Shown here: one piece after another, positions 1-32,614 of the stretch | Layout: the number at the start of each line of letters is the position of its first letter | Position numbering within the stretch: position 1 is the first letter of the stretch | From: Symsagittifera roscoffensis | Taxonomy: Eukaryota | Direction: 5' to 3' | Assembly: GCF_963678635.1 (NCBI RefSeq) | Contig: NC_087064.1 | Location: forward strand, 45,921,437-45,985,436 | Length of the DNA stretch: 64,000 bases | The notes under the pieces: generated by a model | The model's database searches: none | What the model was told of the DNA's origin: nothing | Seen by the model: the letters and a program-made list of their open reading frames with translations, nothing else | Translations under genes and position numbers: made by a program

Positions 1-1600
1 TTTGGGGAAAAATTCGTTAAGAAAGTTGGATGATATTAAATTGCCAATTTTTGACGAAGAATTTCTTTCGTATGTCTCAAAACAATAAGTGACAAAGTTT
101 ACTCAAAACTCAGAACTAACGGAGCTCAGCCTGCTGAGTTATACGGTTTGGGTAGAGTACATAAAAAAGAAATACTACTCCGTCCGGTTCTATCATTTTT
201 TGGCAGTAGTTCTCTAAACTGAAGAGCTTTTTGACCCTCCTTTTTGAAAAATTTTCTGGCGCAAACATCGAAACATCTAAGTTAGACGCTCGAGAAAAAC
301 TCGAAAAATTAATACTCGACGAAAATGAACAAACTGTTTCACTAGACGTTAAGAGTCCCGTATTGGAAGCAATTGAGATTGCCTTACGTAAATTGTATAG
401 AACTGATTACCCACCAGATATTAAAGTGCTGCTTAAGTTAGCCGTGATAAAAGTTTATTTCGAAAGCAACGGAAAAGGGTATTGCCAGAAGGATGGGTTA
501 GCCATGGGTGCATCACTGGTAGTAATTTCGGCTAATTTATGGATGCAATCGTATGAACAAATAATGAACGATAAAAACGAAGGCATAAAGCAAATAACAA
601 AAAATAATCTCAAAAAAGTCCAAGAGGCAGCAAAAGTTTTGGATGAAACAGCAAAGGTGTTGAACAGTGAAAAATGTGAAAAATGGTTTCATGCTAATTG
701 CCAAAACATCAGTAAAGACGAATACCAAAAAATGGGTGATATAATGGTACTGGGAATTCTGTCGTAATTTACCAGACATTTCAACTTGTGTTAAGGAAAG
801 AAAACTGTTCGAAAGATACAAAGACGACAAAGTTTGCGCAGTCAAAGGGGACTCAAACACGTAACTTAATAGGGTGAACTGGTTGCATTAGAACTTACCA
901 TTTACTATAAAAAAGCCAACGAAAAAGAAAAACTTGTTTTTTTGGACATGAATATTGTCCAAAAATCAACTGATACTGAAACTACTTTGAGCTTTCATAG
1001 GTGCGAACCACTCCAGTACAAAAAAAAACCTTACGGAAGGAAAACAACATAGGTTGTTTCGATATACCATTAACTGGAAGAAACTCGACAAAGCGTTAAA
1101 AACCAACGAGGAAATTGAGAAGAAAAATCAGTACCCAGAACCCTGGACATCAAAAAAATAAAAACGACATTGAAAAGAAATCACAAACAAAACATCAAAA
1201 ACTTCACAGAAAGCAAAAACAGAAAGCAGTCGCGAGAAAATTGACAAAATGATATTTTTTCTACAGCATCGAGGAAACTAAAGTTTGAAATCGACAGAAA
1301 AATTTCAAAGATCACAAGCCCGGTATTGATCATTTCACGACGCGCAAAAAAATGCCTGCCGTCGCTTAAGTCAACTTTTGACTGCAACCTGAAGTCTCAT
1401 GTGGTTTATGAAACAAAATGTAAGGAACATAGTGCCACTTATGTTGGGCAAACATGCCGACATCTAACCATACGCATAACAGAGCATCAAAAGAATGATT
1501 CGCCAGAAAGACAGCATGTCGCAGAATGCTGTGGACAATCTAAGGCTTTTGAATGGAGATTAATTGACAAAGGCAATGATTCTGAAAATTACTAACCTTA
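1..1600 (+). mobile_element. Penelope-like element PLE-1, copy a. It is partial at the window edge: RT plus GIY-YIG, with a ~395-bp internal deletion of N-terminal-domain sequence relative to copies c and d.
   Basis: Translation of 130-230 gives LYGLGRVHKKEILLRPVLSFFGSSSLN, the RT motif YGLPKIHK...RPIVS. ORF 231-767 carries SLDVKS (the RT motif A, sfDVksLFTnIP type) and GYCQKDGLAMGASLVVISANLWM (motif B). 1326-1595 encodes VVYETKC...YVGQTCRHLTIRITEH...H, a GIY-YIG endonuclease. Confidence 0.7.
1283..1595 (+). pseudogene. GIY-YIG endonuclease domain of PLE-1 copy a
   Basis: ORF 1326-1595: HVVYETKCKEHSATYVGQTCRHLTIRITEHQKNDSPERQHVAECCGQ. It has the GIY/YIG-type V-Y and Y-V-G motifs, a conserved Arg and the EH. 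The same domain is at 23,760-24,007 and 29,848-30,095. Confidence 0.7.
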
Positions 1601-3538: not shown

Positions 3539-4871
3539 TCATAATATCTTTAATGTAACGGAGAAAAAGTTAGCCTGCTGCACTGAATTGTTTTTCTCCC
3601 TTATCGCGGTGCATTTTCTGCAGTACCAGTCGGTTTCACTTATATTTCGATGCTCATCATCTGATATATCACCGCATTTTACGTGATACGAGTTCAAACA
3701 GCATTCGCATCCCACACCTTTTGACACGTACGTGACTTTCTTATTGCACTCGAGACATATTCCATTAGGTTCTTTTTCGGGCATAAACTTTTCACGAATA
3801 TCCCCCCGGAAGTTCAGTTTCGTACTGCTTCAGCCAAAGGTTTGCTATAAAACGACAATAGTTGCCCCTTTTGCCGAACCATTTTTTCTGAACATACTAT
3901 GTTTCACTGCACTTGAAATGGACTTGACTAACTACCATGTTCAACCGTCTCTTCATGGTTTTCCTAGCACCTGACGGCAGTTCATCTTGCTGATACAGCT
4001 TTCTCAGAGCTATGTTTAGTGCTTCTTTGAGTGAATCAATTGTATACAAACTCTTCACATCTAGAGATAGCAAGATTTCCTTTAGCTCAAGACTAATGAT
4101 CTCTCAGATTTTTCTTGCTTCTAGTGAGTTGGTTTTGATGTTTGCGCCCTCAATTTTTTCGGAAATTTTTGCAAGAACCTTGTTCAGGTTAAACTAACAG
4201 CTACCAGGCAATGAGAGGACCGGTCTTAATAGGGTTCTCTGTTTACGCACCTTGGTTTACCCAAAAAGCCTGGCGGGCTGCCTCCGAGTACACCTCATTC
4301 TTGTGTAGAGATTCTCACTTTTTTTCGTCTTTTTGCTCGTAGCCAACAAATCCTTATTGATATGTTTTTCTATCTTCATAATGATCGAATCACATGTTCC
4401 TTTGCTTTCGCTGACCTTGATTTAAATCTAACAAATCCGATAGTTATTTCTCGTAGGTAACCCTCCTCATTACGCAAAAACCAACGCCCATGTCATACGG
4501 TACCCCAACCAATCCATTACTCCTCAGATAATTTCGGGCCTTCCGAACGCCCTTGTCAGCTGGTGTTGGTTTCCCGCTTTTAGAATAGGCTTTTGCCACT
4601 GCTTCGATTTCACAAAGAGCCTTCCCAGGGACTTTTTGATATTTGAGATCCGAAAGAAAGATGTTAACATCGGCGAGAAAGTGTGTCTCACTAAATTTAT
4701 CCCTGACAGGATGTTTCGGCTCTAATTCCAACAGTTGTTGTACCCAATAAGGTAATCCAACATCATCAAGAGCTTTTAATGAACCCTTTTAATGAGGTCG
4801 ATCCTGCCTTTCTGATGGTTTAATTAGTTTTTTTTCATGGTTCTCTGTAACTTCTGCTGTTGTTGTTGTTA

Positions 4872-4927
<56 letters not shown>

Positions 4928-4929
4928 GC

Positions 4930-4966
<37 letters not shown>

Positions 4967-5022
4967 GCTGTTGTTGTTGTTGTTGTTGTTAATGTTGTTG
5001 TTGTTGTTGTTGGTGGTGGTGG

Positions 5023-5077
<55 letters not shown>

Positions 5078-5491
5078 GGTGGTGGTGTTGTTGTTGTTTT
5101 CTGTCCCCTGAGACTTGGGTATTTCATTACCGAAGGCCAAAACTTCTCATCTACACCCCTCTGTACTGCGCCTTTCGCCTTTTCCAGTTTTCTCTTGAAG
5201 TTTTTCTCATCTGTCCTTGCCTTGGTTAATCTCCGTTTCTAAAAGTCTTGTCTGAAAATTATGTACCGCTTGGTCCAAAAACATCCCATTTTCCGGTTCC
5301 CTCAACCTCAAAAAATTATGTATATTGTCGTTTTCAAAACATCCTCTCGGAAATTTACCACGCTGGTGGCAGTTGATAAATATAAAATATATGGATGCAT
5401 AATCACAGACTAATTTCAAAGTGCGTTTCTTTTTAAGGTCCAAATCAAGTTTGGAGGTTCGAGGCCTCGAGGAATAAACCTCATGTGACAC
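3539..5491 (-). mobile_element. Penelope-like element PLE-2, a diverged paralogue of PLE-1, on the minus strand. It has an N-terminal domain, an internal (AAC)n microsatellite, a 5' RT fragment, then a deletion to the C4HC3 zinc-finger linker. No GIY-YIG remains.
   Basis: Minus ORF 5207-5491 reads FPRGCFENDNIHNFLRLREP...FLDQAVHNFQTRLL. This matches the PLE-1 N-terminal CLNNDIIPHFLEFRVP...FSEQAVLNFKKRLL. Minus ORF 4444-4731 (EPKHPVRDKF..THFLADVN...LCEIEAV...PTPADKGVRKAR) aligns to PLE-1 VPKHAIKDML..IHFLADID..LCGIVA..PTDRALLRM. Minus-strand translation of ~4,150-3,960 gives RPVLS...ISLDVKSLYTIDSLKEALNIALRKLY (RT motif A). Minus ORF 3539-3784 has CLECN..x11..CECC..SYHVKC..x17..CRKC. This is homologous to PLE-1 C.KWFHANCQNISKDEYQKMGD.YW..C. 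Confidence 0.6.
4856..5097. repeat. (GTT)n, read as (AAC)n on the PLE-2 sense strand. A ~80-unit microsatellite with a few CTG/ATT/GGT variants.
   Basis: Direct reading. The ORF-track poly-L, poly-N and poly-T proteins across 4789-5140 are its six-frame images. Confidence 0.95.
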
Positions 5492-6419
5492 AATTCAAGA
5501 CAAATAACACAAAATTAACTCACCTGCTCCGTTGAAGTCTCCTCGTCAGTTTGTCCAACTATTTCCTCTCCTCTGTCCACTGTCTTTTTTCTCCACCCTC
5601 CTTCTCGTTTGCTAGTTCTTTTTCTTGTTTGAACGAAGCTTTGACAAATCAGCTGGTAGGTTGTCTTGGTGTTCGATCACAATCCGCAAAGATTTTTTTT
5701 AGCTCCAGCTGGATGTCCTGGTGTAGTCCCTGATATTCGTTCACCAGCTCCGTTCTTCTCATCCCCTTTGAAATCAGACACCCTGTAATGGAAATGACAA
5801 GAATACCCGAGCTGATGCGCTGGTTCCTGATATCTGGTGTACCGTTTCTCTGACAGTATACATTTGCGCTGATATTTGTCATTGTCTTCAAGATTTATGT
5901 CAATTCCTCTGGAGTGCAAGCTCTGTAAGTGTTTGTGCGATGGATGTTGATAGAATTACTAATAATGTCGTGCCACACCACCTTTTGACGTTTTTCCACT
6001 CCTGCAGAGTATGTTTGAGAGGTTTTTCTGCGAGTTCGTGGTATTCGAGTTTAAGGAAAGTCCCGGATTAGCCAATTTTTTGGGAAAAAAGTGTTCGTTT
6101 TTTGGGTTGCTAAGTTGTTCCAGGCGCTACAATGTACACCATTTCAATTCTAACAGGCTATTCTAACAAATCATAATTCTAACCAGGGCTCCATACAAGA
6201 ATAGAGAGATCAAAAAATCTTACAGTTCACACAGACTTTTTTGAAACGTGGACAACAACGCGGCAACAACGTGGACGGCTTTATCCTAGCTCAACATTCA
6301 AGAAAAAATAGAAAACGAAGTACGGTCTCTGATTGACCAGGGACACATGACTCGCTGAAAAAATGAAGTGACCAGCAGTTTTTTAGTCACATTGTAATAA
6401 CTGTAAAAAACTATCCAAC

Positions 6420-8700
6420 ATTGAAATTGGCAATGAATTCAAAACAAGTAAGCAAATCGTTCTATGAAAACAAGCATCGAATGCCTAACATTGACGTTTT
6501 GCTTGACAAAATTGAACACTTGCCCATGAAGTTTGAAACAAACCAAATACAACATACTTTTTCAACAATAGACGTATGCTACGAACACAGACAACTGACA
6601 ATAGACAATGACAGCCGGCTGCCATCAGACACAAAAACACATACGCATTGTAATTTTAGTTTTATCAGTGGTAGAGCTACAAAAAACTTTCAGTTCCAAA
6701 CGGGACCCTACGGGCTTACAGATATGTGCGCATAATTGTAAAAAACGAATACAGCACAATCCCTATGCAAAAGATAACATAGGAAAATTACAAAACCCTA
6801 CAGCCTTCAAATGGCTCAAAAGCTTCATTGGCTCCATTCATCATTTAAATAATTCCTACCAAACTTAGCCCAATAGTGTAGGGCCATTTTTACCTACAAC
6901 AAATTAATTCCACTGTGGATGAAACGCTGATCGCAAAAAAGCATTTAAAAAAACATTACATGCAGTACAAAACATCACCGAAAGCAGAATTTTTGTAAAT
7001 GATAGGGAGACGCGTATTGTATGCAACGCAAGTCGAGAAGGAAGAGAGGCGACTCTCGAACAAATTACACTGCACGGCTGGGCAACAATTGCATATGCGT
7101 CGCGCTTCCTAATCTCTTATGAACACAAACATTCAATCAACGAAGTGGAACTCTTGGCAGCAGTCTGACAGATTTTTCACACTAAATACAGACCACTAAG
7201 CAATAGTAAATGCTTTAGAAAGTAACAGGGGAAACAAAACCTATCAAAACCGTTGAATCAGGTGGATCGACAGACGTTTTTTGTTCAATTTTGATATAAA
7301 AACAGCTAGGAGGCAGTAAAAAGGGTATCTTTTACGACTACGAGAGGAAAACTTCTCCCCAGCAAACTGGGAAGAACATTTTGTCATTACATTAATCCCC
7401 GACTTCGTCAATTGTTTAGAATTTGAAAATAGCAGTGCTGCAAATATTTTATTGAACAATTCTCTAACCGGATATTTCGGCACGAAGAAGTCAACCTGAA
7501 CGAAATATTTAAACCTTCACATTCGATTCAAATGCAAACAGCATTCACCGTTAAAATTCAATCTTTACACACTAGACGCTCAATAGCCTTGCAACATTCC
7601 GTTCCAAGTTCTTTTGAAATTCTAAAAAAGCGATAAAATGCACAGACCTTTTATACAATGATTGCCATTAACACCGTTCAAAAGAGTCACATAAAAATGC
7701 CACAAAGGCAGTCAAGCACAATTATCAATCGCACAAACCAATTACGCCTCTTTATTGAGTCTCTTGCCAAATAACCTCCGCCCAAACTAACAATCAGCGA
7801 AGTCAAACACCAAGCGATCCCTGCGGTCGGAACCTTCACCTTCTGAAGAGTCCAGAATGAGAAAGCGGACGCGACTTGCCAAAGATTAGAGGAGGGGAGC
7901 GCTGTAGGAAGAAGACATTCCACTCTTCTGGAAAACTTGTGAAGAGTAATAGACATAGACTTCATTACAGCGGCCACAAAAAAGCTGGAGTTTTGTCTCC
8001 AATCGTCAACATGGTCAAGCAGCAGAAATGGGACAACCAAGGATTGTTATAGAACCTACTTTTACAACGTGCGGCACCGCCTGTCGTTTAGGGACAACAT
8101 CTTACTTAACGACTATAGGGTCGTGATACCGAGGGCTATACTAGTGGATGCAATGCATTCAACCCACCTGGGAAAAAATTGATGGCAGCCAAACACGTGT
8201 GGTAGCCATTCTTACACCGCGACGTAGTCTCCACCACTTAAAACTGTAAAAACTATCGAGACAAGGGTAAGGACTTTGAAGTGATATCAGACAAGCAACA
8301 CTATACCACGCTTGGCATGTTGGTAGAACCTAACAAAGAATACCAATTGGATTTCGCGGGAACTATCCGAAACAAGGAAAAGGATTTATAGTGGTTGTAG
8401 AATAATTCTCCTGTTTCCATTCGGTCAAGGTGCTTACAAATAATAATGCGGATACAATCATCTGATTTGTGCAAAATCACCTTATCAATCATCGTGTGAA
8501 CAGGCACAAAACATACGGTGCGACCAGGCACAAAACTATAGGGCCAAAAAATGTGTTTTTCACTGTAAAATTAACAAGAACAAAACTAATATATATACCA
8601 TTAGATGACCATAAGTCAATGGGTTTGTTGGAAAGGCTTATTAGAACTGTGAAACCAAGATTATAGGTAATAAGAATCGACAAAACAAACAGGTCGTATA
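6420..8700 (+). pseudogene. Ty3/gypsy-like LTR-retrotransposon pol remnant (RT, RNase H, integrase) with frameshifts and stops. Identical copy at 14,431-16,711. A ~95%-identical copy sits at 34,049-36,330.
   Basis: ORF 6421-6735: PNIDVLLDKI..FSTIDVCYEHRQLTIDNDSRLPSDTKTHTHCNFSFISGRATKNFQFQTGPYGLTDMCA (the RT P.IDDLLD..FSKLDL..GYHQI and Y.F..MPFGLTNAP block). 6608-6868 gives LKSFIGSIHHLNNSY (the FLGL.GYYRRFI block). The 35,305-35,700 copy gives VQNEKADAICQRLEE (the RNase H-end ..ADALSR motif). 8,090-8,270 gives the integrase HH..C..C region. 8,330-8,400 gives IGFRGNYPKQGKGFIVVVE.FSCF (the IDFIGPLP.S.G..YILVVVD.FSK block). 8469-8666 gives DHKSMGLLERLIRTVK (the HPQTDGQTERLNRTL block). Confidence 0.7.
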
Positions 8701-9934
8701 AACTTGCGTCGGAAGTGGCAGAGCTGATTTAAACACTTCAAATTACGCGACCACTAAGATTACGCCATTTGAAGCCCAAAATGTCAGAAAACACACCACT
8801 GAGTAACATCAGCGCCTCACCAAAACTTTCAAACCTTTAATGCTAAAACAAGAAACTTTCATATTTACATTCAAAAATAACTAATAAAGCCGGCATTACC
8901 AGCGGAGGCCAGGCGGGACCGAGAGAAAAACAGCGAGGACGTTCTAGTCCTGATGTACAGAGATACATATGCGCCAGAACCCAGAGAGCATACATACCTA
9001 CCAGAGCCAACATATAACCCACCCAATGAGAAGACTGCCACAACGACTATGGAGGACACAGTTGAAAACAGTCACAAAATAAATGCGACAACGAAACCTG
9101 GGAAAAAAGAATTCAAAGGACCAATCAAAACGTGGATGCGCACCTTAAAAAATTTCCGGTGGGTGCGTAGCTTTCATTTTCTAACCAGCCTTATGACCTG
9201 AAAAATTTTAAGCACGCCTTCTCAAGTGAAAATATATTAAACGACAAAGGACCTAGAAAAGCCAAAAGGGCGCAAACCAATAAAACACTCACAGAACAAG
9301 AAAAGCAAAACCTCGAAATAGCACCACTAGTTTTCCTACAGGATCGCTTCAAAGGTCCAGCGCACACGATTGACCCAAAAACGGGACATTGAATAGCCAG
9401 GAAAACGAGACCAGTTCCACGAAAAACGAAAAATCAAGGCACATTTGAAACTCAAATTAAAATATCCAAACGGGTCAAAATTAACTACTCAACACACCGC
9501 GTGGATCAGGGCAGACGGCAAACAACCGCGAGTAATTAGACACGATGGTCTTGCATTCATACGAGACGCAAGCGTCTACGGAAAATGAAGACCTGTGACG
9601 CTGATGGATTTTGTAGTTTATAAACATCAACCAAGAGCCAAATCTCATGTCTTAGGAGAGCGCAAACTTGCTGACAGGTGACCCTCCAAACAGACCGCCA
9701 CAACCACCAGTCCTGTGCGACCACCCCCAAAATCTATCTGAGAAGTCATTCAGCAATCGATTAACCGCAGGGCATTGGATCCACAAAAGTTGTTCGAATC
9801 TTTTGTATCGAAGACAAAACGGCCCCAAAAAAACCCAAGGACGACGAATCACAAATAAAACAACAACAAACCATACTACGAGGAAAAATGAGCCCCAAGA
9901 AGCAATCCAGAGTACTCATCAGTCAAATTGAGTT

Positions 9935-11620
9935 CCTTATCTTCAGATTCTGAAAAGAAAAGAAAAACGCCATCTCCACAGAAACCGGCCGCAAAGAGAT
10001 TAGACATAAAGCACCCCAGAACAAAACTCACCAGAATCTAGACGTTCTCCTAGGACTAGAAAAAGCGCACTCACTATAAAACTAGAAAATCTCAATCCGA
10101 TTAGCCAAATGTCGGAATCGAAAACGTCCGCAATAGTTGTATGCAGCATCGAGGAAACCGACACGCATAACAACATGCCCAACGAGACCAACAAAAACCA
10201 AGACACCCAAACAACTGATACGAAGAAGAACACAAAAGGACAAATCCTTTCGGATGGAATCACGTGTACAAAAAAAACAAGTGGATACTTCCAAGTCAGA
10301 AAATACAAGATCCAAAGAACCAAATACGCCGCATTTACACTCTCTCACCACAAAGACAAACAAATTCTTTATACATTCTCGACAGACCGAAAACGACAAA
10401 AAAATCCATTTAGCAAAAATTTTGAAACAGAAATGAATATTCTGCCTTCTATCTCCCCGGTCCGGGGTAACTCGATGACGTTCCAAAGAGAACGTGAAAC
10501 TCATATAGGACAATAACGTATCCAGAAAAAGAACCACAACAAACAAAAAACATCAATAGAGCCCCAATTAACGTGGACAAAACGTCAGACGCTAAAAAAT
10601 ATAACGACACGACGAAGAAAAGAGAGCAAAATTGATAGACTCAATTGTTCAAAAAGAGGGAAACCTTGTCCATCCCGATTTTACAGAAATACAACTAATG
10701 ATTATGAACCATACTAAAACACCAATTGGTAACTCTACTTTATTTATAGGTTTTATTGATTAGCGTATAGAAGTATGATGGTTAAATAAGTATAGACAAA
10801 AGTACTAGTTCTTGTAAGAGACTGTCTCTCAAATGAGTCGAGATCAGTGTCACCCAGACTTAAGCAGATAAGTGAGTTTAAATTGCTATTTAACCTGTTT
10901 TATTCAATCAAAGTTAGATGTTGCCAACGTAACTATGGCTTACCCTCACCTAACTGATGAGAGTATAACATGGCGCAGCCAGCAGTTTTGAAAAACACTC
11001 TCGAAAATACTCCACTGCGGCAAAAAGCCTCGGTAGAAACATTAACTGTGGGGGATATTTGCAATCAGCTGTTATTTCTGGTAATCATAGCCAAAGATGG
11101 TAGTAATCTGCAGAAATTTCATGGACCAGCAACACCAACACAAAAATCTCAGCAACCAGGTAACAAACTACCATTCAACGGGGAACCAAAACACAAGTTA
11201 GAGGTTGAGACCTGGGAAATTAGGAAAAAAGAATACAAGGGGAGAATCAATGTCAACTTCTGGACAATCTAGGACCAACTGTAGACGATTTACCGTGGGA
11301 ACAAGCGGACATGAAAAATCGCAGCTATTTTTATTTGTGTCTAGGGACAGAGGCCAAAGGCGGCAAAAAAAACCTCACTCGAACCTGAAGATACAAAATC
11401 TAACAACTAGATTTCTATGTACAGACTAGAAACAATGTCTTTAAAAAACCGAAAAAAGTATCATTTGACAGATATGAAGCGTTCACGCGCAAGCAGGGAA
11501 AAACGGAAACATTGGAGCAGATCCCCTGCGGCTTAACAGAACTCGTAGTAATAGGAAACTTCAAATGCACAACTTGTAGCGACGGAGGACGTGAGGCAGA
11601 AATTGACAGAGACCTATTCA
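9935..11620 (+). repeat. 1.68-kb sub-repeat, the founder unit of the 37.6-41.3-kb tandem array. The identical copy is at 17,946-19,631. It contains a purine tract at 9,952-9,967 and a CA|TGGCGCAGCC junction at 10,969-10,980.
   Basis: Array junction ...gaaattgacagagac|tttatcttcagattctg joins the equivalents of 11,620 and 9,935. The embedded ORFs (MSESK..., MAQPAV..., MRPGKL...) are T-poor compositional artefacts. Confidence 0.7.
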
Positions 11621-13559
11621 CAGGCAATGTGTTCAACGATGAAGTGCAAAAAGATCTGCTAGCGGAAAAGAATCTCCCGAACAAGCGTTATTTGTCAGTG
11701 TCTTCAGAATTTCTGTCAATTCCTCTGGAGTGCAAGCTCTGTAGATGTTTGTGCGATTGCTTTTGATAGAATTACTGATAATATCGTGCCACAACACCAC
11801 TTGACGTTTTTCTGCTAGAGATGCCCTGCATAGTGGGTTTGAGAGGTTTTTCTGCGAGTTCGTGGTGTTCGAGTTAAAGGAAAGTCACGGAATAGCCGAT
11901 ATTTTGGGCAGAAATTGTTCCTTCTCCGGGTTGCTAAGATATTCCAGGCTGTGGTAGAAGGAATTAGCCGCTACAATGTAGACCATTTCAATTCTAACAT
12001 TTTTTTAAAAAACCAAAAATCCAAAGGAAAAATTAAATTTACAATTCTTTGTAGGAGAGACTGTAATTGAGACTTGGCTCAACGCCGTAGAGTTTTAGAA
12101 TTTTACAACTAAATAAGTTGAGACCTACATCTAAATAAATTGTCTGACAGAGTTTTTGAAAAAATATAAATTGACTCAGTTTACTCTATTTTTGCAATTT
12201 CTTCGTGGTCTTGCAAAAAAAATTTAGCAATATAATCATGTTAACTATCTTTTGCTTAAAACTTAGACGATGCTTTGTGGTACATTCCTAAGTTTTAAAA
12301 GCAGAACTAAACAACTACAAAAAACAATTTGGTAAGCATTAAATTGAAAAAAATTGAAAAATGAAAAATATCTTTTACAATACCGCGTGAGTTTATTTCA
12401 GTTCAATTGAAAAACTCCCAGCCGATTGCAACTAAAACTCCTAATCTTTCTTATTCTCAATATTTCCCATCAAAAAGAATAAAAAATAATTACATTACTC
12501 TGAAATTTTTGCTGCAAAGCCGCGTGAATTTAACTCAATTCGATTGAAAAACTCCTAGCCGATAGCTTTCATAAAACTATTTTGGATTAACTGCAAAGTT
12601 ATCCGGATAAAAAACCAAACTGCTGTATTGTTTTTTGTGGCTCTCATTATCTTTTTCAATGGTCTATTATGTTTCAGCGCAATTGCTTTTGTTTTTTTTT
12701 GAAATTTGGTAATGAAATTTTGAATTTAGTTTTATAATGAAATAAATTAACGTGACTCTTTAGCACTTTTCTCTAATTTTCTTAATTTTTTTTATAAAAG
12801 TGTGCTTTCTTTGAAAAACTATATATACTTCGAAATAATTAACTTCAGTAAATAGCAAGGCTAGCCGGTAGTTATGCAAGTAAACTAAGCAATTCCGCAG
12901 AAAATTTGCGTCTACAAAAAAACTTGAAAACAGTTGTTTCTGTTAGGTAATGAGCGAATCTATACAAAAACCTAAGAAATAAGCATATTTTGAGGTTAAT
13001 GTAGAATATGCGTTTCTGATAACGTTTTTTTCGAAATTTTTAACAAAAAAAAACAAATAAAAAAAAACAAAAAAAAAAACAAAAAAAACTTCAATAACTC
13101 ATAATATTGGAGAAAAATGCAGTTTTTTTATTTTTTTTGCGTATTACATTTTCGGATTAAGAAGATACGACGATATGTGCCCATACTAACAGAGTCTTCT
13201 CGCGGTGTAATGTTTCAGCTGAAACGATCTAAACGCCTGAAAGCTGAACAAAATTTCTTCTATCAAAATTGCATACTGGTCAATACTTTAAAGATAGACG
13301 TGAGGGTTTATTGTGGTCTCAAACAGCTACTACTGAGGAAATTCTGGTTGAAATTTGGAGAATTTAATGAAAATGACAAGTGCACGTGGAAAATTGGGTG
13401 CGATTGTGCGGCGAACAACTGCCAGGACCCCACGTGGAAACACAGAAGCCATCCCACTACTACTACTACTAATTTTTACGGACGTAGTTGTGCATAGTTC
13501 TGATAACTTTTCAAACCATGCATCGAATCGCTGCGCTAATTCTACCTAGGAGATGGCTA

Positions 13560-13918
13560 CGCACACTTCTTACAAGAACTGATGTATGGCGACCTCTGTT
13601 AAAATATTTGAATTACTTCAAAAAAAGGTAAGAATGGCATTTGTCGAGCTTTTTTTTATTGATAAATGCTTGAATAATGATATAATTCCCCATTTTCTTG
13701 AGTTCCGTGTTCCCAAAACTGATTTTTTCTCTGAGCAAGCCGTTCTAAATTTTAAGAAAAGACTACTGAGAGATGAGATGAGAAAGTCGAAAGCTAATTT
13801 GGTTCAGCTACTGTAAAAGTTGTTGATGAAAGTAGTATCGTTTTATCCAAAAAAGTGATAAAAAGTGGCTGCCATCGGTAGTTTTCAATTTACGTCAAAA
13901 TGTCAGCACAATCATTGT
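13560..13918 (+). pseudogene. PLE-1 N-terminal-domain fragment, cut by the tandem-duplication junction. The intact continuation is at 21,570 onwards.
   Basis: ORF 13586-13816: MATSVKIFELLQKKVRMAFVELFFIDKCLNNDIIPHFLEFRVPKTDFFSEQAVLNFKKRLLRDE. This motif block is shared with the PLE-2 N-terminus. Confidence 0.55.
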
Positions 13919-16900
13919 AACAAACAAAAAGCTCTGTAAGTGTTTGTGCGATGGATGTTGATAGAATTACTAATAATGTCGTGCCACACCACCTTTTGAC
14001 GTTTTTCCACTCCTGCAGAGTATGTTTGAGAGGTTTTTCTGCGAGTTCGTGGTATTCGAGTTTAAGGAAAGTCCCGGATTAGCCAATTTTTTGGGAAAAA
14101 AGTGTTCGTTTTTTGGGTTGCTAAGTTGTTCCAGGCGCTACAATGTACACCATTTCAATTCTAACAGGCTATTCTAACAAATCATAATTCTAACCAGGGC
14201 TCCATACAAGAATAGAGAGATCAAAAAATCTTACAGTTCACACAGACTTTTTTGAAACGTGGACAACAACGCGGCAACAACGTGGACGGCTTTATCCTAG
14301 CTCAACATTCAAGAAAAAATAGAAAACGAAGTACGGTCTCTGATTGACCAGGGACACATGACTCGCTGAAAAAATGAAGTGACCAGCAGTTTTTTAGTCA
14401 CATTGTAATAACTGTAAAAAACTATCCAACATTGAAATTGGCAATGAATTCAAAACAAGTAAGCAAATCGTTCTATGAAAACAAGCATCGAATGCCTAAC
14501 ATTGACGTTTTGCTTGACAAAATTGAACACTTGCCCATGAAGTTTGAAACAAACCAAATACAACATACTTTTTCAACAATAGACGTATGCTACGAACACA
14601 GACAACTGACAATAGACAATGACAGCCGGCTGCCATCAGACACAAAAACACATACGCATTGTAATTTTAGTTTTATCAGTGGTAGAGCTACAAAAAACTT
14701 TCAGTTCCAAACGGGACCCTACGGGCTTACAGATATGTGCGCATAATTGTAAAAAACGAATACAGCACAATCCCTATGCAAAAGATAACATAGGAAAATT
14801 ACAAAACCCTACAGCCTTCAAATGGCTCAAAAGCTTCATTGGCTCCATTCATCATTTAAATAATTCCTACCAAACTTAGCCCAATAGTGTAGGGCCATTT
14901 TTACCTACAACAAATTAATTCCACTGTGGATGAAACGCTGATCGCAAAAAAGCATTTAAAAAAACATTACATGCAGTACAAAACATCACCGAAAGCAGAA
15001 TTTTTGTAAATGATAGGGAGACGCGTATTGTATGCAACGCAAGTCGAGAAGGAAGAGAGGCGACTCTCGAACAAATTACACTGCACGGCTGGGCAACAAT
15101 TGCATATGCGTCGCGCTTCCTAATCTCTTATGAACACAAACATTCAATCAACGAAGTGGAACTCTTGGCAGCAGTCTGACAGATTTTTCACACTAAATAC
15201 AGACCACTAAGCAATAGTAAATGCTTTAGAAAGTAACAGGGGAAACAAAACCTATCAAAACCGTTGAATCAGGTGGATCGACAGACGTTTTTTGTTCAAT
15301 TTTGATATAAAAACAGCTAGGAGGCAGTAAAAAGGGTATCTTTTACGACTACGAGAGGAAAACTTCTCCCCAGCAAACTGGGAAGAACATTTTGTCATTA
15401 CATTAATCCCCGACTTCGTCAATTGTTTAGAATTTGAAAATAGCAGTGCTGCAAATATTTTATTGAACAATTCTCTAACCGGATATTTCGGCACGAAGAA
15501 GTCAACCTGAACGAAATATTTAAACCTTCACATTCGATTCAAATGCAAACAGCATTCACCGTTAAAATTCAATCTTTACACACTAGACGCTCAATAGCCT
15601 TGCAACATTCCGTTCCAAGTTCTTTTGAAATTCTAAAAAAGCGATAAAATGCACAGACCTTTTATACAATGATTGCCATTAACACCGTTCAAAAGAGTCA
15701 CATAAAAATGCCACAAAGGCAGTCAAGCACAATTATCAATCGCACAAACCAATTACGCCTCTTTATTGAGTCTCTTGCCAAATAACCTCCGCCCAAACTA
15801 ACAATCAGCGAAGTCAAACACCAAGCGATCCCTGCGGTCGGAACCTTCACCTTCTGAAGAGTCCAGAATGAGAAAGCGGACGCGACTTGCCAAAGATTAG
15901 AGGAGGGGAGCGCTGTAGGAAGAAGACATTCCACTCTTCTGGAAAACTTGTGAAGAGTAATAGACATAGACTTCATTACAGCGGCCACAAAAAAGCTGGA
16001 GTTTTGTCTCCAATCGTCAACATGGTCAAGCAGCAGAAATGGGACAACCAAGGATTGTTATAGAACCTACTTTTACAACGTGCGGCACCGCCTGTCGTTT
16101 AGGGACAACATCTTACTTAACGACTATAGGGTCGTGATACCGAGGGCTATACTAGTGGATGCAATGCATTCAACCCACCTGGGAAAAAATTGATGGCAGC
16201 CAAACACGTGTGGTAGCCATTCTTACACCGCGACGTAGTCTCCACCACTTAAAACTGTAAAAACTATCGAGACAAGGGTAAGGACTTTGAAGTGATATCA
16301 GACAAGCAACACTATACCACGCTTGGCATGTTGGTAGAACCTAACAAAGAATACCAATTGGATTTCGCGGGAACTATCCGAAACAAGGAAAAGGATTTAT
16401 AGTGGTTGTAGAATAATTCTCCTGTTTCCATTCGGTCAAGGTGCTTACAAATAATAATGCGGATACAATCATCTGATTTGTGCAAAATCACCTTATCAAT
16501 CATCGTGTGAACAGGCACAAAACATACGGTGCGACCAGGCACAAAACTATAGGGCCAAAAAATGTGTTTTTCACTGTAAAATTAACAAGAACAAAACTAA
16601 TATATATACCATTAGATGACCATAAGTCAATGGGTTTGTTGGAAAGGCTTATTAGAACTGTGAAACCAAGATTATAGGTAATAAGAATCGACAAAACAAA
16701 CAGGTCGTATAAACTTGCGTCGGAAGTGGCAGAGCTGATTTAAACACTTCAAATTACGCGACCACTAAGATTACGCCATTTGAAGCCCAAAATGTCAGAA
16801 AACACACCACTGAGTAACATCAGCGCCTCACCAAAACTTTCAAACCTTTAATGCTAAAACAAGAAACTTTCATATTTACATTCAAAAATAACTAATAAAG

Positions 16901-19900
16901 CCGGCATTACCAGCGGAGGCCAGGCGGGACCGAGAGAAAAACAGCGAGGACGTTCTAGTCCTGATGTACAGAGATACATATGCGCCAGAACCCAGAGAGC
17001 ATACATACCTACCAGAGCCAACATATAACCCACCCAATGAGAAGACTGCCACAACGACTATGGAGGACACAGTTGAAAACAGTCACAAAATAAATGCGAC
17101 AACGAAACCTGGGAAAAAAGAATTCAAAGGACCAATCAAAACGTGGATGCGCACCTTAAAAAATTTCCGGTGGGTGCGTAGCTTTCATTTTCTAACCAGC
17201 CTTATGACCTGAAAAATTTTAAGCACGCCTTCTCAAGTGAAAATATATTAAACGACAAAGGACCTAGAAAAGCCAAAAGGGCGCAAACCAATAAAACACT
17301 CACAGAACAAGAAAAGCAAAACCTCGAAATAGCACCACTAGTTTTCCTACAGGACCGCTTCAAAGGTCCAGCGCACACGATTGACCCAAAAACGGGACAT
17401 TGAATAGCCAGGAAAACGAGACCAGTTCCACGAAAAACGAAAAATCAAGGCACATTTGAAACTCAAATTAAAATATCCAAACGGGTCAAAATTAACTACT
17501 CAACACACCGCGTGGATCAGGGCAGACGGCAAACAACCGCGAGTAATTAGACACGATGGTCTTGCATTCATACGAGACGCAAGCGTCTACGGAAAATGAA
17601 GACCTGTGACGCTGATGGATTTTGTAGTTTATAAACATCAACCAAGAGCCAAATCTCATGTCTTAGGAGAGCGCAAACTTGCTGACAGGTGACCCTCCAA
17701 ACAGACCGCCACAACCACCAGTCCTGTGCGACCACCCCCAAAATCTATCTGAGAAGTCATTCAGCAATCGATTAACCGCAGGGCATTGGATCCACAAAAG
17801 TTGTTCGAATCTTTTGTATCGAAGACAAAACGGCCCCAAAAAAACCCAAGGACGACGAATCACAAATAAAACAACAACAAACCATACTACGAGGAAAAAT
17901 GAGCCCCAAGAAGCAATCCAGAGTACTCATCAGTCAAATTGAGTTCCTTATCTTCAGATTCTGAAAAGAAAAGAAAAACGCCATCTCCACAGAAACCGGC
18001 CGCAAAGAGATTAGACATAAAGCACCCCAGAACAAAACTCACCAGAATCTAGACGTTCTCCTAGGACTAGAAAAAGCGCACTCACTATAAAACTAGAAAA
18101 TCTCAATCCGATTAGCCAAATGTCGGAATCGAAAACGTCCGCAATAGTTGTATGCAGCATCGAGGAAACCGACACGCATAACAACATGCCCAACGAGACC
18201 AACAAAAACCAAGACACCCAAACAACTGATACGAAGAAGAACACAAAAGGACAAATCCTTTCGGATGGAATCACGTGTACAAAAAAAACAAGTGGATACT
18301 TCCAAGTCAGAAAATACAAGATCCAAAGAACCAAATACGCCGCATTTACACTCTCTCACCACAAAGACAAACAAATTCTTTATACATTCTCGACAGACCG
18401 AAAACGACAAAAAAATCCATTTAGCAAAAATTTTGAAACAGAAATGAATATTCTGCCTTCTATCTCCCCGGTCCGGGGTAACTCGATGACGTTCCAAAGA
18501 GAACGTGAAACTCATATAGGACAATAACGTATCCAGAAAAAGAACCACAACAAACAAAAAACATCAATAGAGCCCCAATTAACGTGGACAAAACGTCAGA
18601 CGCTAAAAAATATAACGACACGACGAAGAAAAGAGAGCAAAATTGATAGACTCAATTGTTCAAAAAGAGGGAAACCTTGTCCATCCCGATTTTACAGAAA
18701 TACAACTAATGATTATGAACCATACTAAAACACCAATTGGTAACTCTACTTTATTTATAGGTTTTATTGATTAGCGTATAGAAGTATGATGGTTAAATAA
18801 GTATAGACAAAAGTACTAGTTCTTGTAAGAGACTGTCTCTCAAATGAGTCGAGATCAGTGTCACCCAGACTTAAGCAGATAAGTGAGTTTAAATTGCTAT
18901 TTAACCTGTTTTATTCAATCAAAGTTAGATGTTGCCAACGTAACTATGGCTTACCCTCACCTAACTGATGAGAGTATAACATGGCGCAGCCAGCAGTTTT
19001 GAAAAACACTCTCGAAAATACTCCACTGCGGCAAAAAGCCTCGGTAGAAACATTAACTGTGGGGGATATTTGCAATCAGCTGTTATTTCTGGTAATCATA
19101 GCCAAAGATGGTAGTAATCTGCAGAAATTTCATGGACCAGCAACACCAACACAAAAATCTCAGCAACCAGGTAACAAACTACCATTCAACGGGGAACCAA
19201 AACACAAGTTAGAGGTTGAGACCTGGGAAATTAGGAAAAAAGAATACAAGGGGAGAATCAATGTCAACTTCTGGACAATCTAGGACCAACTGTAGACGAT
19301 TTACCGTGGGAACAAGCGGACATGAAAAATCGCAGCTATTTTTATTTGTGTCTAGGGACAGAGGCCAAAGGCGGCAAAAAAAACCTCACTCGAACCTGAA
19401 GATACAAAATCTAACAACTAGATTTCTATGTACAGACTAGAAACAATGTCTTTAAAAAACCGAAAAAAGTATCATTTGACAGATATGAAGCGTTCACGCG
19501 CAAGCAGGGAAAAACGGAAACATTGGAGCAGATCCCCTGCGGCTTAACAGAACTCGTAGTAATAGGAAACTTCAAATGCACAACTTGTAGCGACGGAGGA
19601 CGTGAGGCAGAAATTGACAGAGACCTATTCACAGGCAATGTGTTCAACGATGAAGTGCAAAAAGATCTGCTAGCGGAAAAGAATCTCCCGAACAAGCGTT
19701 ATTTGTCAGTGTCTTCAGAATTTCTGTCAATTCCTCTGGAGTGCAAGCTCTGTAGATGTTTGTGCGATTGCTTTTGATAGAATTACTGATAATATCGTGC
19801 CACAACACCACTTGACGTTTTTCTGCTAGAGATGCCCTGCATAGTGGGTTTGAGAGGTTTTTCTGCGAGTTCGTGGTGTTCGAGTTAAAGGAAAGTCACG

Positions 19901-21947
19901 GAATAGCCGATATTTTGGGCAGAAATTGTTCCTTCTCCGGGTTGCTAAGATATTCCAGGCTGTGGTAGAAGGAATTAGCCGCTACAATGTAGACCATTTC
20001 AATTCTAACATTTTTTTAAAAAACCAAAAATCCAAAGGAAAAATTAAATTTACAATTCTTTGTAGGAGAGACTGTAATTGAGACTTGGCTCAACGCCGTA
20101 GAGTTTTAGAATTTTACAACTAAATAAGTTGAGACCTACATCTAAATAAATTGTCTGACAGAGTTTTTGAAAAAATATAAATTGACTCAGTTTACTCTAT
20201 TTTTGCAATTTCTTCGTGGTCTTGCAAAAAAAATTTAGCAATATAATCATGTTAACTATCTTTTGCTTAAAACTTAGACGATGCTTTGTGGTACATTCCT
20301 AAGTTTTAAAAGCAGAACTAAACAACTACAAAAAACAATTTGGTAAGCATTAAATTGAAAAAAATTGAAAAATGAAAAATATCTTTTACAATACCGCGTG
20401 AGTTTATTTCAGTTCAATTGAAAAACTCCCAGCCGATTGCAACTAAAACTCCTAATCTTTCTTATTCTCAATATTTCCCATCAAAAAGAATAAAAAATAA
20501 TTACATTACTCTGAAATTTTTGCTGCAAAGCCGCGTGAATTTAACTCAATTCGATTGAAAAACTCCTAGCCGATAGCTTTCATAAAACTATTTTGGATTA
20601 ACTGCAAAGTTATCCGGATAAAAAACCAAACTGCTGTATTGTTTTTTGTGGCTCTCATTATCTTTTTCAATGGTCTATTATGTTTCAGCGCAATTGCTTT
20701 TGTTTTTTTTTGAAATTTGGTAATGAAATTTTGAATTTAGTTTTATAATGAAATAAATTAACGTGACTCTTTAGCACTTTTCTCTAATTTTCTTAATTTT
20801 TTTTATAAAAGTGTGCTTTCTTTGAAAAACTATATATACTTCGAAATAATTAACTTCAGTAAATAGCAAGGCTAGCCGGTAGTTATGCAAGTAAACTAAG
20901 CAATTCCGCAGAAAATTTGCGTCTACAAAAAAACTTGAAAACAGTTGTTTCTGTTAGGTAATGAGCGAATCTATACAAAAACCTAAGAAATAAGCATATT
21001 TTGAGGTTAATGTAGAATATGCGTTTCTGATAACGTTTTTTTCGAAATTTTTAACAAAAAAAAAAACAAATAAAAAAAAACAAAAAAAAAAACAAAAAAA
21101 ACTTCAATAACTCATAATATTGGAGAAAAATGCAGTTTTTTTATTTTTTTTGCGTATTACATTTTCGGATTAAGAAGATACGACGATATGTGCCCATACT
21201 AACAGAGTCTTCTCGCGGTGTAATGTTTCAGCTGAAACGATCTAAACGCCTGAAAGCTGAACAAAATTTCTTCTATCAAAATTGCATACTGGTCAATACT
21301 TTAAAGATAGACGTGAGGGTTTATTGTGGTCTCAAACAGCTACTACTGAGGAAATTCTGGTTGAAATTTGGAGAATTTAATGAAAATGACAAGTGCACGT
21401 GGAAAATTGGGTGCGATTGTGCGGCGAACAACTGCCAGGACCCCACGTGGAAACACAGAAGCCATCCCACTACTACTACTACTAATTTTTACGGACGTAG
21501 TTGTGCATAGTTCTGATAACTTTTCAAACCATGCATCGAATCGCTGCGCTAATTCTACCTAGGAGATGGCTACGCACACTTCTTACAAGAACTGATGTAT
21601 GGCGACCTCTGTTAAAATATTTGAATTACTTCAAAAAAAGGTAAGAATGGCATTTGTCGAGCTTTTTTTTATTGATAAATGCTTGAATAATGATATAATT
21701 CCCCATTTTCTTGAGTTCCGTGTTCCCAAAACTGATTTTTTCTCTGAGCAAGCCGTTCTAAATTTTAAGAAAAGACTACTGAGAGATGAGATGAGAAAGT
21801 CGAAAGCTAATTTGGTTCAGCTACTGTAAAAGTTGTTGATGAAAGTAGTATCGTTTTATCCAAAAAAGTGATAAAAAGTGGCTGCCATCGGTAGTTTTCA
21901 ATTTACGTCAAAATGTCAGCACAATCATTGTAACAAACAAAAAAATG
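13919..21947 (+). repeat. 8,011-bp tandem duplication, copy 2. It runs straight on into PLE-1 copy c.
   Basis: As above. The junction aacaaacaaaaa|gctctgtaagtg at 13,918 corresponds to aacaaacaaaaaaatgaacgctgaattgc at 21,947. There the sequence continues into the P unit instead. Confidence 0.9.
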
Positions 21948-32058: not shown

Positions 32059-32517
32059 TCATAATATCTTTAATGTAACGGAGAAAAAGTTAGCCTGCTG
32101 CACTGATTTATTTTTCTCCCTTATCGCGGTGCATTTTCTGCAGTACCAGTCGGTTTCACTTATATTTCGATGCTCATCAAATGATATATCACCGCATTTT
32201 ACGTAATACGAGTTCAAAAAGCATGGGCATCCCACACCTTTTGACTTGTACGTGACCTTCTTATTGCACTCGAGACATATTCCATTAAGTTCTTTTTCGG
32301 GCAAAAACCTTTCACGAACATCCCCCCGAAAGTTCAGTTTCGTACTGCTTCAGCCAAAGGTTTGCTATAAAACGACAATAGTTGCCCTTTTTGCCGAACC
32401 ATTTTTTCTGAACATACTATGTTTCACTGCACTTGAAATGGACTTGACTAACTACCATATTAGTTTTTTTTTCATGGTTCTCTGTAACTGCTGTTGTTGT
32501 TGTTATTGTTGTTGACG

Positions 32518-32603
<86 letters not shown>

Positions 32604-32614
32604 ATTGTTGTTGC

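Follow-up and report, generated by a model that had tools for sequence, protein, structure and literature searches.

A short LTR between Pol and Gag remnants of a decayed Ty3/gypsy fragment in the Symsagittifera roscoffensis genome

Does the 8,011-bp periodicity at this locus of Symsagittifera roscoffensis reflect a tandem array of retroelements that share their LTRs, and is the segment at 9906–10990 largely one of those LTRs? Both had been proposed in an earlier reading of the letters (hereafter the sequence-only reading) of the window, by which we mean the whole 64,000-nucleotide stretch analysed here. We conclude, at a probability of roughly 85%, that 9906–10990 holds the 3' end of a dead Ty3/gypsy-type element, one LTR and the 5' end of a like element. 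The flagged kilobase is mostly dead gypsy Pol-tail coding sequence, followed by a genuine but short LTR (307 bp) and a putative PBS. The feature is ordinary, and the 8-kb periodicity is an unrelated and very recent segmental duplication. The CA/TGG junction on which the earlier proposal was built is real, whereas the rest of that reading of the segment, namely the ~1-kb LTR, the PPT, the inverted ends and the period, did not hold.

Pol, LTR and Gag remnants in the gypsy fragment

The gypsy fragment occupies 6183–11688 (5,506 bp) and is so decayed that six-frame Pfam and ORF listing kept only an RNase H domain; intact relatives were needed for mapping. All of its coding remnants lie on the plus strand. 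The left end (6183–6303) carries a C-terminal remnant of ORF1 (Gag-PR), corresponding to residues ~548–579 (tblastn match at 6183–6278, E = 1.4e-5). It is followed at 6304–7301 by an RT and RNase H remnant interrupted by frameshifts and stops (tblastn with the RT of relative L001; Pfam RT_RNaseH_2 and RT_RNaseH), and by an integrase remnant comprising the H2C2 zinc domain and the rve core at 7949–8612 (tblastn; Pfam rve and Integrase_H2C2 in the relative). The remnant of the Pol C-terminal tail, the relative's 'ORF3', was placed at 8670–10585 (tblastn residues 1–648 at 8670–10498, E = 1.5e-81); the alignment stops at residue 648 of 676, at 10498, and the end at 10585 is an extrapolation from there. 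Pfam returned no domain for this tail in the relative. At the right end, 10970–11685 holds an N-terminal Gag remnant, ORF1 residues 1–237 (tblastn residues 1–89 and 69–237, E = 1e-47), so the expectation that Gag remnants would be absent from 10,990–13,900 was wrong. ORF1 residues 238–547, the zinc-knuckle and protease region, gave no tblastn match anywhere in the window. The motifs CFKCG…H…C, CNKCTKRGHFARLC and ADTGSP can be recognized by eye in ORF1 of the relative, and Pfam gave no match there. The Pol domains are of gypsy type and in the order RT, RNase H and integrase, and the best solved-structure match of the relative is the Ty3 RT/RNase H (E = 3e-58). Pol tail, PPT, LTR, PBS and Gag are contiguous over 8670–11685, and six-frame Pfam of 11690–13930, to the right of the fragment, found no domain.

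The gypsy family is abundant, counting over 1,100 relatives at E ≤ 1e-20, and cluster look-ups attached no name to it. Canonical LTR pairs with 5-bp TSDs were found in three relatives, one each in L001 (TSD GGAGC), L003 (CCCTT) and L005 (TAAGT). The L001 element has 352-bp LTRs (TGTTAT…ATAACA), the PPT AAAAAGAGGGAAA and the junction …GGGTATAACA/TGGCGCAGCCAGCA. The LTR-plus-internal period of the relatives ranges from 6,228 to 7,010 bp. As a separate observation, the L001/L002 locus contains an 8,352-bp array with a junction between Pol tail and non-element DNA.

From left to right, 9906–10990 consists of the Pol-tail remnant (to ~10585), a short untranslated spacer, the PPT, the LTR and the putative PBS. 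The part from 9906 to ~10585 encodes, in decayed form, the last ~225 residues of the Pol C-terminal tail, which is of unusual length. The purine tract GAAAAGAAAAGAAAAA (9952–9967, plus strand) is indeed present, but the PPT role proposed for it is lost, since the tract is in-frame coding sequence (…S-E-K-K-R-K…) inside this remnant. The surrounding coding sequence reads …SSDSEKKRKTPSPQKPAAKR…, with the translation LSSLSSDSEKKRKTPSPQKPAAKRLDI versus ISLSSDTDVNENTPSPDKPAAKRIDI in the relative, and purine runs of 13 nt or longer occur four times in the 8-kb unit, this tract included. The true PPT, AAAAAGAGGGAAA, lies at 10651–10663 (plus strand) and directly abuts the LTR; L001 and L005 have the identical 13-mer at the 3' LTR, and that of L003 is nearly identical.

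The LTR itself, the sole one per unit, is the 307 bp at 10664–10970 (plus strand), as delimited by alignment to both L001 LTRs and by BLAST against the LTRs of L001–L005. An LTR spanning 9968–10970, as had been suggested, would start with CG and not TG, and there is no ~1-kb direct repeat of 9968–10970 other than the copies within larger segmental duplications. The 3' end of the window LTR reads …GAGAGTATAACA and keeps the terminal …ATAACA, and its 5' start is CCTTGT (TCTTGT in copy 3) versus TGTTAT in the relatives; this non-TG start probably reflects decay. No second LTR copy was found in the window besides those in the duplicated units, and the two LTRs that form flanking direct repeats in L001, L003 and L005 are not seen in the window copy. 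With a single LTR per unit, the window copy represents part of a family member rather than a complete element. As for the inverted similarity of the segment ends, it amounts to nine exact nucleotides (ACTGATGAG), a chance match of which about three would be expected in 1.3 kb. The claimed ends were not among the 19 comparable pairs returned by the repeat tool, and their left arm (9911–9923) falls outside the proposed LTR.

The CA/TGG junction, in contrast to the rest of that reading, survived comparison with the intact relatives, in which the 5' LTR ends at the same place. CA occupies 10969–10970 and TGG 10971–10973, in the context ...GAGTATAACA/TGGCGCAGCCAGCAG, and 10970/10971 is the true 3' end of the LTR followed by a TGG-initiated putative PBS. 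The junction …GTATAACA/TGGCGCAGCCAGCA is identical in four diverged relatives (L001–L004) and in all four window copies, and L005 matches at 13 of 14 positions. The LTRs are only 72–84% identical, yet outside L005 the 14-nt TGGCGCAGCCAGCA is invariant; conservation falls right after PBS nucleotide 14, and synonymous positions within the 14 nt are conserved too. Judged by these alignments, conservation of the junction is far above chance. The putative PBS, TGGCGCAGCCAGCA (10971–10984, plus strand), overlaps the Gag start codon, which straddles the LTR/PBS boundary: its A is the last LTR base (10970), and the TGG belongs to the ATG. Gag starts with ATG GCG CAG CCA GCA (MAQPA). A PBS function is thus suggested by position and conservation, and the Gag N-terminus could account for part of that conservation.

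A tRNA 3' end complementary to the candidate PBS would read …TGCTGGCTGCG(CCA). Drosophila tRNA-Ser presumably ends in …CTGCGCCA, and hence a tRNA-Ser-like acceptor with G73 would be expected as the primer. ARAGORN, for which the positive control passed, found no tRNA genes in the window, in L001–L005 or in two further host sequences (L121 and L122), ~200 kb of host DNA in all, and Rfam gave no match in the window. The predicted tRNA end TCGAATCNNTGCTGGCTGCG had 115 matches in a metagenome scan, all in GC-rich bacterial coding sequences (…IESLLAA…) and none in tRNAs, and a literature search for a PBS starting with TGGCGCAG returned irrelevant results only.

Segmental duplications and the repeats that flank the fragment

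The 8,011-bp unit is a segmental tandem duplication in two copies at 5918–21943, with its junction at 13930/5918 and 99.96% identity between the copies, whose alignment over 8,013 bp shows a single mismatch and a single gap. Each unit consists of 265 bp of a repeat termed R300-A, the 5,506-bp gypsy fragment, 336 bp of a second repeat, R300-B, and 1,906 bp of AT-rich non-element DNA. The junction lies in non-LTR DNA with at most ~2 nt shared, and the array comprises exactly 2.0 units with no third LTR. The equation of the 8,011-bp period with an LTR plus an internal region therefore fails, since the family period is 6.2–7.0 kb and the unit combines 5,506 bp of element with ~2,500 bp of other DNA. 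In a second assembly of the same locus, L122, which is 99.1–99.5% identical, the 8-kb junction is missing; the two halves of the junction map 7.5 kb apart, and both outer flanks are contiguous at 100%. The duplication appears to be polymorphic between assemblies, and either assembly could be wrong in copy number (by expansion or by collapse).

Two further periodicities involve the same DNA. A ~14.3-kb unit is present in ~2.9 copies at ~94–95% identity, with array edges at ~66–80 and ~43,215 in non-element DNA, and a 1,683-bp unit within copy 3, at ~96–97% identity, has its non-LTR junction at 11613/9937. At no duplication junction is an array bounded by LTRs, or a unit boundary placed in LTR homology. 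The gypsy fragment would have been copied passively in three later rounds of segmental tandem duplication, with units of ~14.3 kb, 1,683 bp and 8,011 bp. We infer that the 8,011-bp duplication is the youngest of the three and has no relation to LTR recombination.

The outer borders of the gypsy fragment show neither an LTR nor a short TSD, and repeats of ~320 bp adjoin them instead. R300-A (5873–6182, minus strand, placed by tblastn) adjoins the fragment on the left and is a 5'-terminal part of a retroelement family that we call X; R300-B (11689–12024, minus strand, likewise placed by tblastn) adjoins it on the right and is the 5'-terminal ~336 bp of X. The two are direct repeats with 78% identity. 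Residues 25–140 of the L121 ORF at 8561–9043 match 6087→5751 (tblastn) and the RT-PHD part of X matches 4391→3611, while residues 3–93 of L121 ORF g8561 match 11977→11705 (tblastn), which places R300-B. R300-A runs leftwards into a longer X copy, and R300-B is the terminal ~336 bp only. Element X is an RT-PHD-HTH_animal retroelement that is possibly Penelope-like, a label resting on a motif seen by eye, with no GIY-YIG domain detected in X by Pfam. Relatives of the X RT family occur in Symsagittifera roscoffensis and Convolutriloba macropyga at 42–55% identity. Two other identities of R300 were considered and rejected. If R300 were the gypsy element's true LTR pair, it would lack an adjoining PBS or PPT and a TSD, and it differs in base composition and encodes the antisense 5' ORF of another retroelement; as diverged Gag-C/PR sequence, it has no similarity to ORF1 residues 238–547 or to L001–L005.

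Origin of the shared LTR

One part of the shared-LTR proposal stands and the other does not. The LTR is shared, because Pol lies to its left and PBS-Gag to its right; the 8-kb array was not made by LTR exchange. The shared-LTR layout implies a product of the kind that arises by LTR–LTR recombination, via a tandem dimer or a one-LTR circle or concatemer. Normal integrase-mediated insertion does not account for its arrival here, because the borders are without LTR or TSD and both adjoin the same ~320-bp piece of X. The flanking repeats are only 78% identical, suggesting that the gypsy fragment would have entered, or been trimmed, here once and long ago.

We consider it plausible, at somewhat less than even odds, that a one-LTR circle or concatemer, or its RNA or cDNA, was broken in ORF1 and captured without integrase in the 5' region of X. 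Such a capture may have proceeded by end-joining at a staggered break, by replicative template switching or by switching during reverse transcription of X, and it would leave ~320 bp of X duplicated, one copy on each side. The two fragment ends fall within ~10 bp of the edges of the R300 direct repeat, and the continuity of R300-A with a longer X copy, set against the terminal ~336 bp that R300-B comprises, is consistent with such an event, as is the agreement in composition between R300 and the upstream X DNA. The missing LTR and TSD at the borders also fit, and a single event accounts for all four boundaries. However, a target duplication of 310–336 bp is unusually long, neither an empty site nor another X copy supports a single-copy state of R300 before the insertion, and the loss of 930 bp of ORF1 has to be assumed as well.

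A less likely but still tenable origin is a tandem dimer (LTR-internal-LTR-internal-LTR) formed in place on the chromosome by unequal LTR exchange and then cut down to the central internal-LTR-internal part; the reduction would have come from deletions, or else from X-family elements inserting independently into ORF1 in each of the two units. No other path to shared LTRs is documented as often, and remnants of dimers running from internal region to internal region have been reported (PMC5932611). If 6182 and 12024 both mark the true 5' terminus of X, two independent X insertions and one deletion would need no coincidence at the right-hand limits. Several independent events would nevertheless be required, nothing of Gag, LTR or Pol from the outer halves was found left of 5873 or right of 12024, and the 3' end of the left X copy (X-A) adjoins another X copy and not Gag.

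A more doubtful proposition sees in the 5.5-kb Pol-LTR-Gag fragment the fossil of an extrachromosomal gypsy molecule, a one-LTR circle or a concatemer, returned to the genome without the help of integrase. Re-entry might have occurred through template switching while the neighbouring RT-PHD element, possibly Penelope-like, underwent target-primed reverse transcription, and because of that switching the same ~320-bp X 5' terminus would cap both ends of the fragment. If the circle reading is true, the locus would be a natural chimera of two unrelated retroelement classes that records the reintegration of a circle in an animal genome.

The remaining proposals retain an LTR-exchange array. It is improbable that the ~14.3-kb array is the shared-LTR tandem array, with a large insertion, from R300-B to R300-A, nested in its internal region; were it so, the idea of the sequence-only reading would hold at a period of 14.3 kb and not 8 kb. 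Exactly one LTR falls in each unit of the 14.3-kb frame, the R300 direct repeats, with a TG start and a CA end, delimit what lies between Gag residue 237 and ORF1 residue 548, and X sequence crosses the nominal unit boundary uninterrupted in copies 2 and 3. Against this, the array borders at ~66–80 and ~43,215 lie in non-element DNA and not at LTRs, R300 corresponds to the 5' coding end of X in antisense rather than to an LTR and has no adjoining PBS-like or PPT-like sequence or TSD, and the DNA separating the R300 copies is a patchwork of microsatellites and at least two oppositely oriented X copies. The original 8-kb model (a ~1-kb LTR at 9968–10970, a PPT at 9952–9967 and an 8,011-bp period equal to LTR plus internal region, made by unequal LTR recombination) gains from the genuine CA/TGG junction and from the one LTR per 8-kb unit between Pol and Gag but is effectively refuted, given the Pol-tail coding remnant at 9906–10585 and the real LTR of 307 bp, a junction (13930/5918) outside the LTR with ~2.5 kb of non-element DNA per unit, family periods of 6.2–7.0 kb, 2.0 units without a third LTR, and the duplication missing in L122.

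Comparison with known systems

The family to which the fragment belongs resembles Ty3/gypsy elements (Metaviridae) in the order of Gag-PR, RT, RNase H and integrase, in its RT_RNaseH_2, Integrase_H2C2 and rve domains and in the TGG-initiated putative PBS adjoining the 5' LTR, and the relatives share with them the short TG…CA LTRs, the 6-bp terminal inverted repeats, the PPT at the 3' LTR and the 5-bp TSDs. Unlike those elements, the window copy is decayed and permuted, with one LTR, no TSD and no zinc-knuckle/protease region. The family itself differs by a ~600-residue Pol tail after the integrase core, in which no domain is recognized, and by having no leader between PBS and Gag, since the ATG of Gag sits across the LTR/PBS boundary. 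Yeast Ty1 Gag likewise starts within the LTR, and the Ty1 PBS is thus translated. For annotation, we suggest that the region be labelled a decayed Ty3/gypsy fragment whose features are an LTR of 307 bp, a PPT and a putative PBS overlapping the Gag start codon, located within nested segmental duplications and not in a tandem LTR-element array. The signature AAAAAGAGGGAAA/TGTTAT…ATAACA/TGGCGCAGCCAGCA with a 5-bp TSD is a usable seed for annotating this abundant unnamed family in a host genome that is poorly annotated.

Retrotransposon cDNA and extrachromosomal circles can be captured at chromosome breaks, as with yeast Ty1 cDNA. The fragment is like such captures in being without LTR ends or a short TSD and in having the order expected from a one-LTR circle; it is unlike them in its flanking ~320-bp target duplication and in the ancient date of the event. 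Tandem LTR-retrotransposon arrays with shared LTRs were reportedly described by Ke and Voytas in 1997. With these arrays the locus shares a single LTR between two internal regions (Pol-PPT-LTR-PBS-Gag), an arrangement diagnostic of LTR–LTR exchange, whereas here only about one period is left, without LTRs at its limits. It is established that such exchange yields shared-LTR tandems (PMC5932611, PMC7215508), exemplified by Drosophila tandems (PMC5932611) and Cassandra arrays (PMC7215508). The 8,011-bp, 1,683-bp and ~14.3-kb periods, unlike those of shared-LTR arrays, include non-element DNA and have non-LTR junctions; because this holds for all junctions, the observed arrays were not built by LTR exchange.

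The closest likeness of the 8-kb periodicity is to recent segmental tandem duplications (copy-number variants with microhomology junctions), with which it shares near-identical units, a ~2-nt junction and a presence that differs between assemblies. As this locus shows, tandem segmental duplications of ~1.7 to 14 kb have arisen often and recently in this genome, which bears on assembly quality control and on the amplification of transposable-element fragments without transposition. Nothing notable sets the present case apart from such duplications; the retroelement fragment merely happens to lie inside.

The gypsy family and its remnant in the window

Relatives were sought with the best-preserved RT/RNase H stretch of the window's element, and the matching loci on long ENA contigs (L001–L005) carry far more intact copies than the window. 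The L001 element (7921–15282) has 352-bp LTRs that are 99.4% identical to each other, start with TGTTAT, end with ATAACA and are flanked by a 5-bp TSD (GGAGC); the PPT AAAAAGAGGGAAA adjoins the 3' LTR, and TGGCGCAGCCAGCA directly follows the 5' LTR. LTR pairs are also present in L003 (TSD CCCTT) and L005 (TSD TAAGT). The 3' LTR of L003 is interrupted at 14168–18225 by a non-LTR retrotransposon (ORF 15254–17620, Exo_endo_phos_2 and RVT_1), and its 5-bp TSD is intact despite this insertion. The closest solved structure to a relative's RT/RNase H is yeast Ty3 (E=3e-58), and a relative's integrase has H2C2 and rve domains; the family belongs to Ty3/gypsy.

Long ORFs are absent from the region of the window that holds the element, where stops run throughout every frame, and only a gypsy-type RNase H domain was detected when stop-masked translations were compared with Pfam. 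Searching the window by tblastn with the L001 proteins placed RT/RNase H at 6304–7301, integrase at 7949–8612 and a long Pol C-terminal tail ('ORF3', 676 aa, without Pfam domain) at 8670–10498. ORF1 (Gag-PR) is represented by residues 1–237 at 10970–11685, Gag residue 237 marking the right limit of the fragment, and by residues ~548–579 at its left start, from 6183; residues 238–547, with the zinc knuckles and protease, are missing from the fragment. A ~496-bp indel (window 8648–9144 versus ~4543 in L122, the same locus in another assembly) lies within the integrase/Pol-tail remnant. A strong strand asymmetry at 6100–11650 (C > G and A >> T, the AT skew reaching +0.44) is limited to the gypsy fragment; the flanking DNA of a second retroelement family (X) and of the R300 repeat is T-rich on the same strand. 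The asymmetry may represent the usual A-rich retroelement plus strand or G-to-A hypermutation.

LTR boundary, PPT and PBS

The sequence-only reading had proposed a ~1-kb LTR at 9968–10970, ending at a CA|TGG junction. That end is confirmed: …GAGTATAACA|TGGCGCAGCCAGCAG has CA at 10969–10970 and TGG at 10971–10973, and the junction is an LTR end followed by a putative PBS because alignment with both L001 LTRs puts the LTR at 10664–10970 (307 bp, ending …GAGAGTATAACA) and because the next 14 nt are conserved in relatives. The proposed start is not, as 9968 reads CG rather than TG, and the first ~680 bases of the flagged interval (9906–10990) are decayed Pol-tail coding sequence because tblastn maps L001 ORF3 across them to 10498. 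The true LTR start is decayed to CCTTGT (TCTTGT in copy 3 of the ~14.3-kb array). The purine tract GAAAAGAAAAGAAAAA is present at 9952–9967 as quoted but is not the PPT; it lies in frame inside the Pol-tail remnant (window …LSSLSSDSEKKRKTPSPQKPAAKRLDI… versus the relative's …ISLSSDTDVNENTPSPDKPAAKRIDI…) and is among four purine runs of >=13 nt in the unit, whereas the real PPT, identical to that of the relatives, is placed by the same alignment at 10651–10663. The supposedly inverted-similar ends share merely 9 exact nt (ACTGATGAG), with ~3 such matches expected by chance per 1.3 kb; the left arm (9911–9923) falls outside the proposed LTR, and the pair is not among the 19 comparable or better inverted pairs reported by a repeat tool in the region. 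The LTR end and PBS were thus called rightly inside an otherwise wrong model.

The 14-nt TGGCGCAGCCAGCA after the LTR is the same in L001–L004 and in each of the four window copies, and L005 matches it at 13/14 positions, against an LTR identity of merely 72–84%, and conservation collapses at once beyond nt 14. The PBS bases also encode the Gag N-terminus (ATG GCG CAG CCA GCA = MAQPA), the A of the ATG being the final LTR base. Because synonymous third positions are invariant as well, this argues for a nucleotide-level constraint, putatively that of a PBS, acting besides the protein constraint. No tRNA genes or Rfam families were found in the window, and no tRNA genes in ~200 kb of host DNA (ARAGORN; positive control passed); a metagenome scan with the predicted tRNA 3' end matched bacterial coding sequences alone, and a literature search on the PBS found nothing.

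Nested duplications and retroelement X

Self-comparison revealed several nested duplications, not a single period. The segments 5918–13930 and 13929–21943 form an 8,011-bp tandem duplication with 99.96% identity (one mismatch and one gap in 8,013 bp). In each unit the 5,506-bp gypsy fragment lies between 265 bp of R300-A and 336 bp of R300-B, and a further 1,906 bp is AT-rich DNA in which no domain could be recognised. This period had been equated with LTR plus internal region, which fails because the family's LTR-plus-internal period is 6,228–7,010 bp, because of the unit's composition and near-identity, because the junction 13930|5918 sets AT-rich DNA against the interior of R300-A (~2 nt shared), outside the LTR, and because L122 has a single copy. 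No third LTR accompanies the duplication. L122, from an ENA sample also containing L001 and L003, is 99.1–99.5% identical to the window locus; in it the outer flanks of the duplication are contiguous at 100%, and the junction halves lie 7.5 kb apart. Unless one assembly is wrong, then, the duplication arose after the two had diverged.

R300, a ~310–336-bp direct repeat inside each unit (5873–6182 versus 11689–12024, 78% identity by self-comparison), is a remnant of X's first ORF in antisense orientation. Family X has the domains RVT_1, PHD and HTH_animal, and those of its relatives that carry names come from two acoels, Symsagittifera roscoffensis and Convolutriloba macropyga, which tentatively suggests an acoel host. 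To its left, R300-A is continuous with a longer copy of X (first ORF 6087->5751, RT-PHD 4391->3611); R300-B is the terminal ~336 bp of X and no more. X remnants lie at 85–1586 (+), 3611–6182 (−), and 22458–24004 and 28393–30092 (+). The plus- and minus-strand copies stand tail to tail and meet at (ATA)n/(TCATAATAATAA)n microsatellites (2608–2799), and a (TGT)n microsatellite of ~80 units (4858–5098 and 32492–32738), poly-Thr when read on the minus strand, lies between the first ORF and RT of minus-strand X. A GIY-YIG-like motif ('VLYEITC…YVGQT') was noticed by eye in an X relative, and Pfam gave no confirmation of a GIY-YIG domain in X; X may be Penelope-like.

A ~14.3-kb segmental tandem unit is present in ~2.9 copies from ~66–80 to ~43,215, with ~94–95% identity. 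Copy 2 has a deletion (2871->10930), and copy 1 has additional sequence at 3941–4823 relative to copy 3. In copy 3, a 1,683-bp sub-unit (9937–11613 equivalent) containing Pol-tail residues ~452–676, PPT, LTR, PBS and Gag residues 1–215 is repeated ~2.2 times at 37595–41326, giving extra LTR copies at 38326–38633 and 40009–40316. We rejected this stretch as a small 'LTR array' in favour of segmental duplication, as its junction 11613|9937 joins Gag residue ~215 to Pol-tail residue ~452, outside the LTR. One 1,683-bp copy holds a 200-aa ORF (39450–40052) that, with the Pol stop lost, extends into the LTR. Near the large array's right end lies a 274-bp tandem repeat (42060–42615; two copies at 97%, 137-bp sub-period), and A-rich (AACAAAAAAAAA)n tracts at 13045–13088 and 21056–21101, shortly before the 14.3-kb unit's right edge, possibly represent a poly(A)-like tail from retroposition. 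Short minus-strand ORFs with WD40-like motifs (…VTGSADNSIRVWK…, …SGASDSNVIKWDL…) at ~46,800–59,200 resemble host-gene exons; 55859–57102 recurs at 62755–64000 with 98.9% identity.

Elsewhere in the same genome, a second locus (L001 1–13815, L002 5463–21326) has a tandem array of at least three units (8,352-bp period, >99.6% identity) around a more intact family member. Its unit comprises 2.46 kb of flanking DNA, with minus-strand GPAT_C-like gene fragments, the 5' LTR and the internal region as far as the Pol tail; its junction joins the Pol tail to non-element flanking DNA with ~1–2 nt shared, outside the LTR. Two independent ~8-kb tandem duplications with the same gypsy family are a curious coincidence.

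Origin of the shared LTR

Each unit has one LTR, with Pol and PPT to its left and PBS and Gag to its right, an arrangement never seen in canonical family members. Such sharing requires recombination between two LTRs, in a chromosomal tandem dimer or through a 1-LTR circle or concatemer; the earlier idea of LTR recombination survives to this extent, and its extension to the 8,011-bp period does not. Both borders of the gypsy fragment (6183–11688) fall at R300 edges, and neither carries an LTR or short TSD. Our leading reading, at a probability of about 0.4, is that a circle or concatemer was captured without integrase, with a ~320-bp target duplication. A chromosomal tandem dimer, trimmed later, is a somewhat less likely source of the same borders and shared LTR. 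A true LTR array at 14.3 kb with nested X material is highly improbable; both edges of that array lie within the window, in non-element DNA.

The feature is ordinary, a decayed piece of a Ty3/gypsy family that lacks annotation, and recent segmental duplications multiplied it passively. It is mildly unusual in being a permuted shared-LTR fragment with one and the same piece of a different retroelement at either end, and in the overlap of the family's Gag start codon with the LTR/PBS boundary, and in nothing else; shared-LTR tandems themselves are well documented (PMC5932611, PMC7215508).
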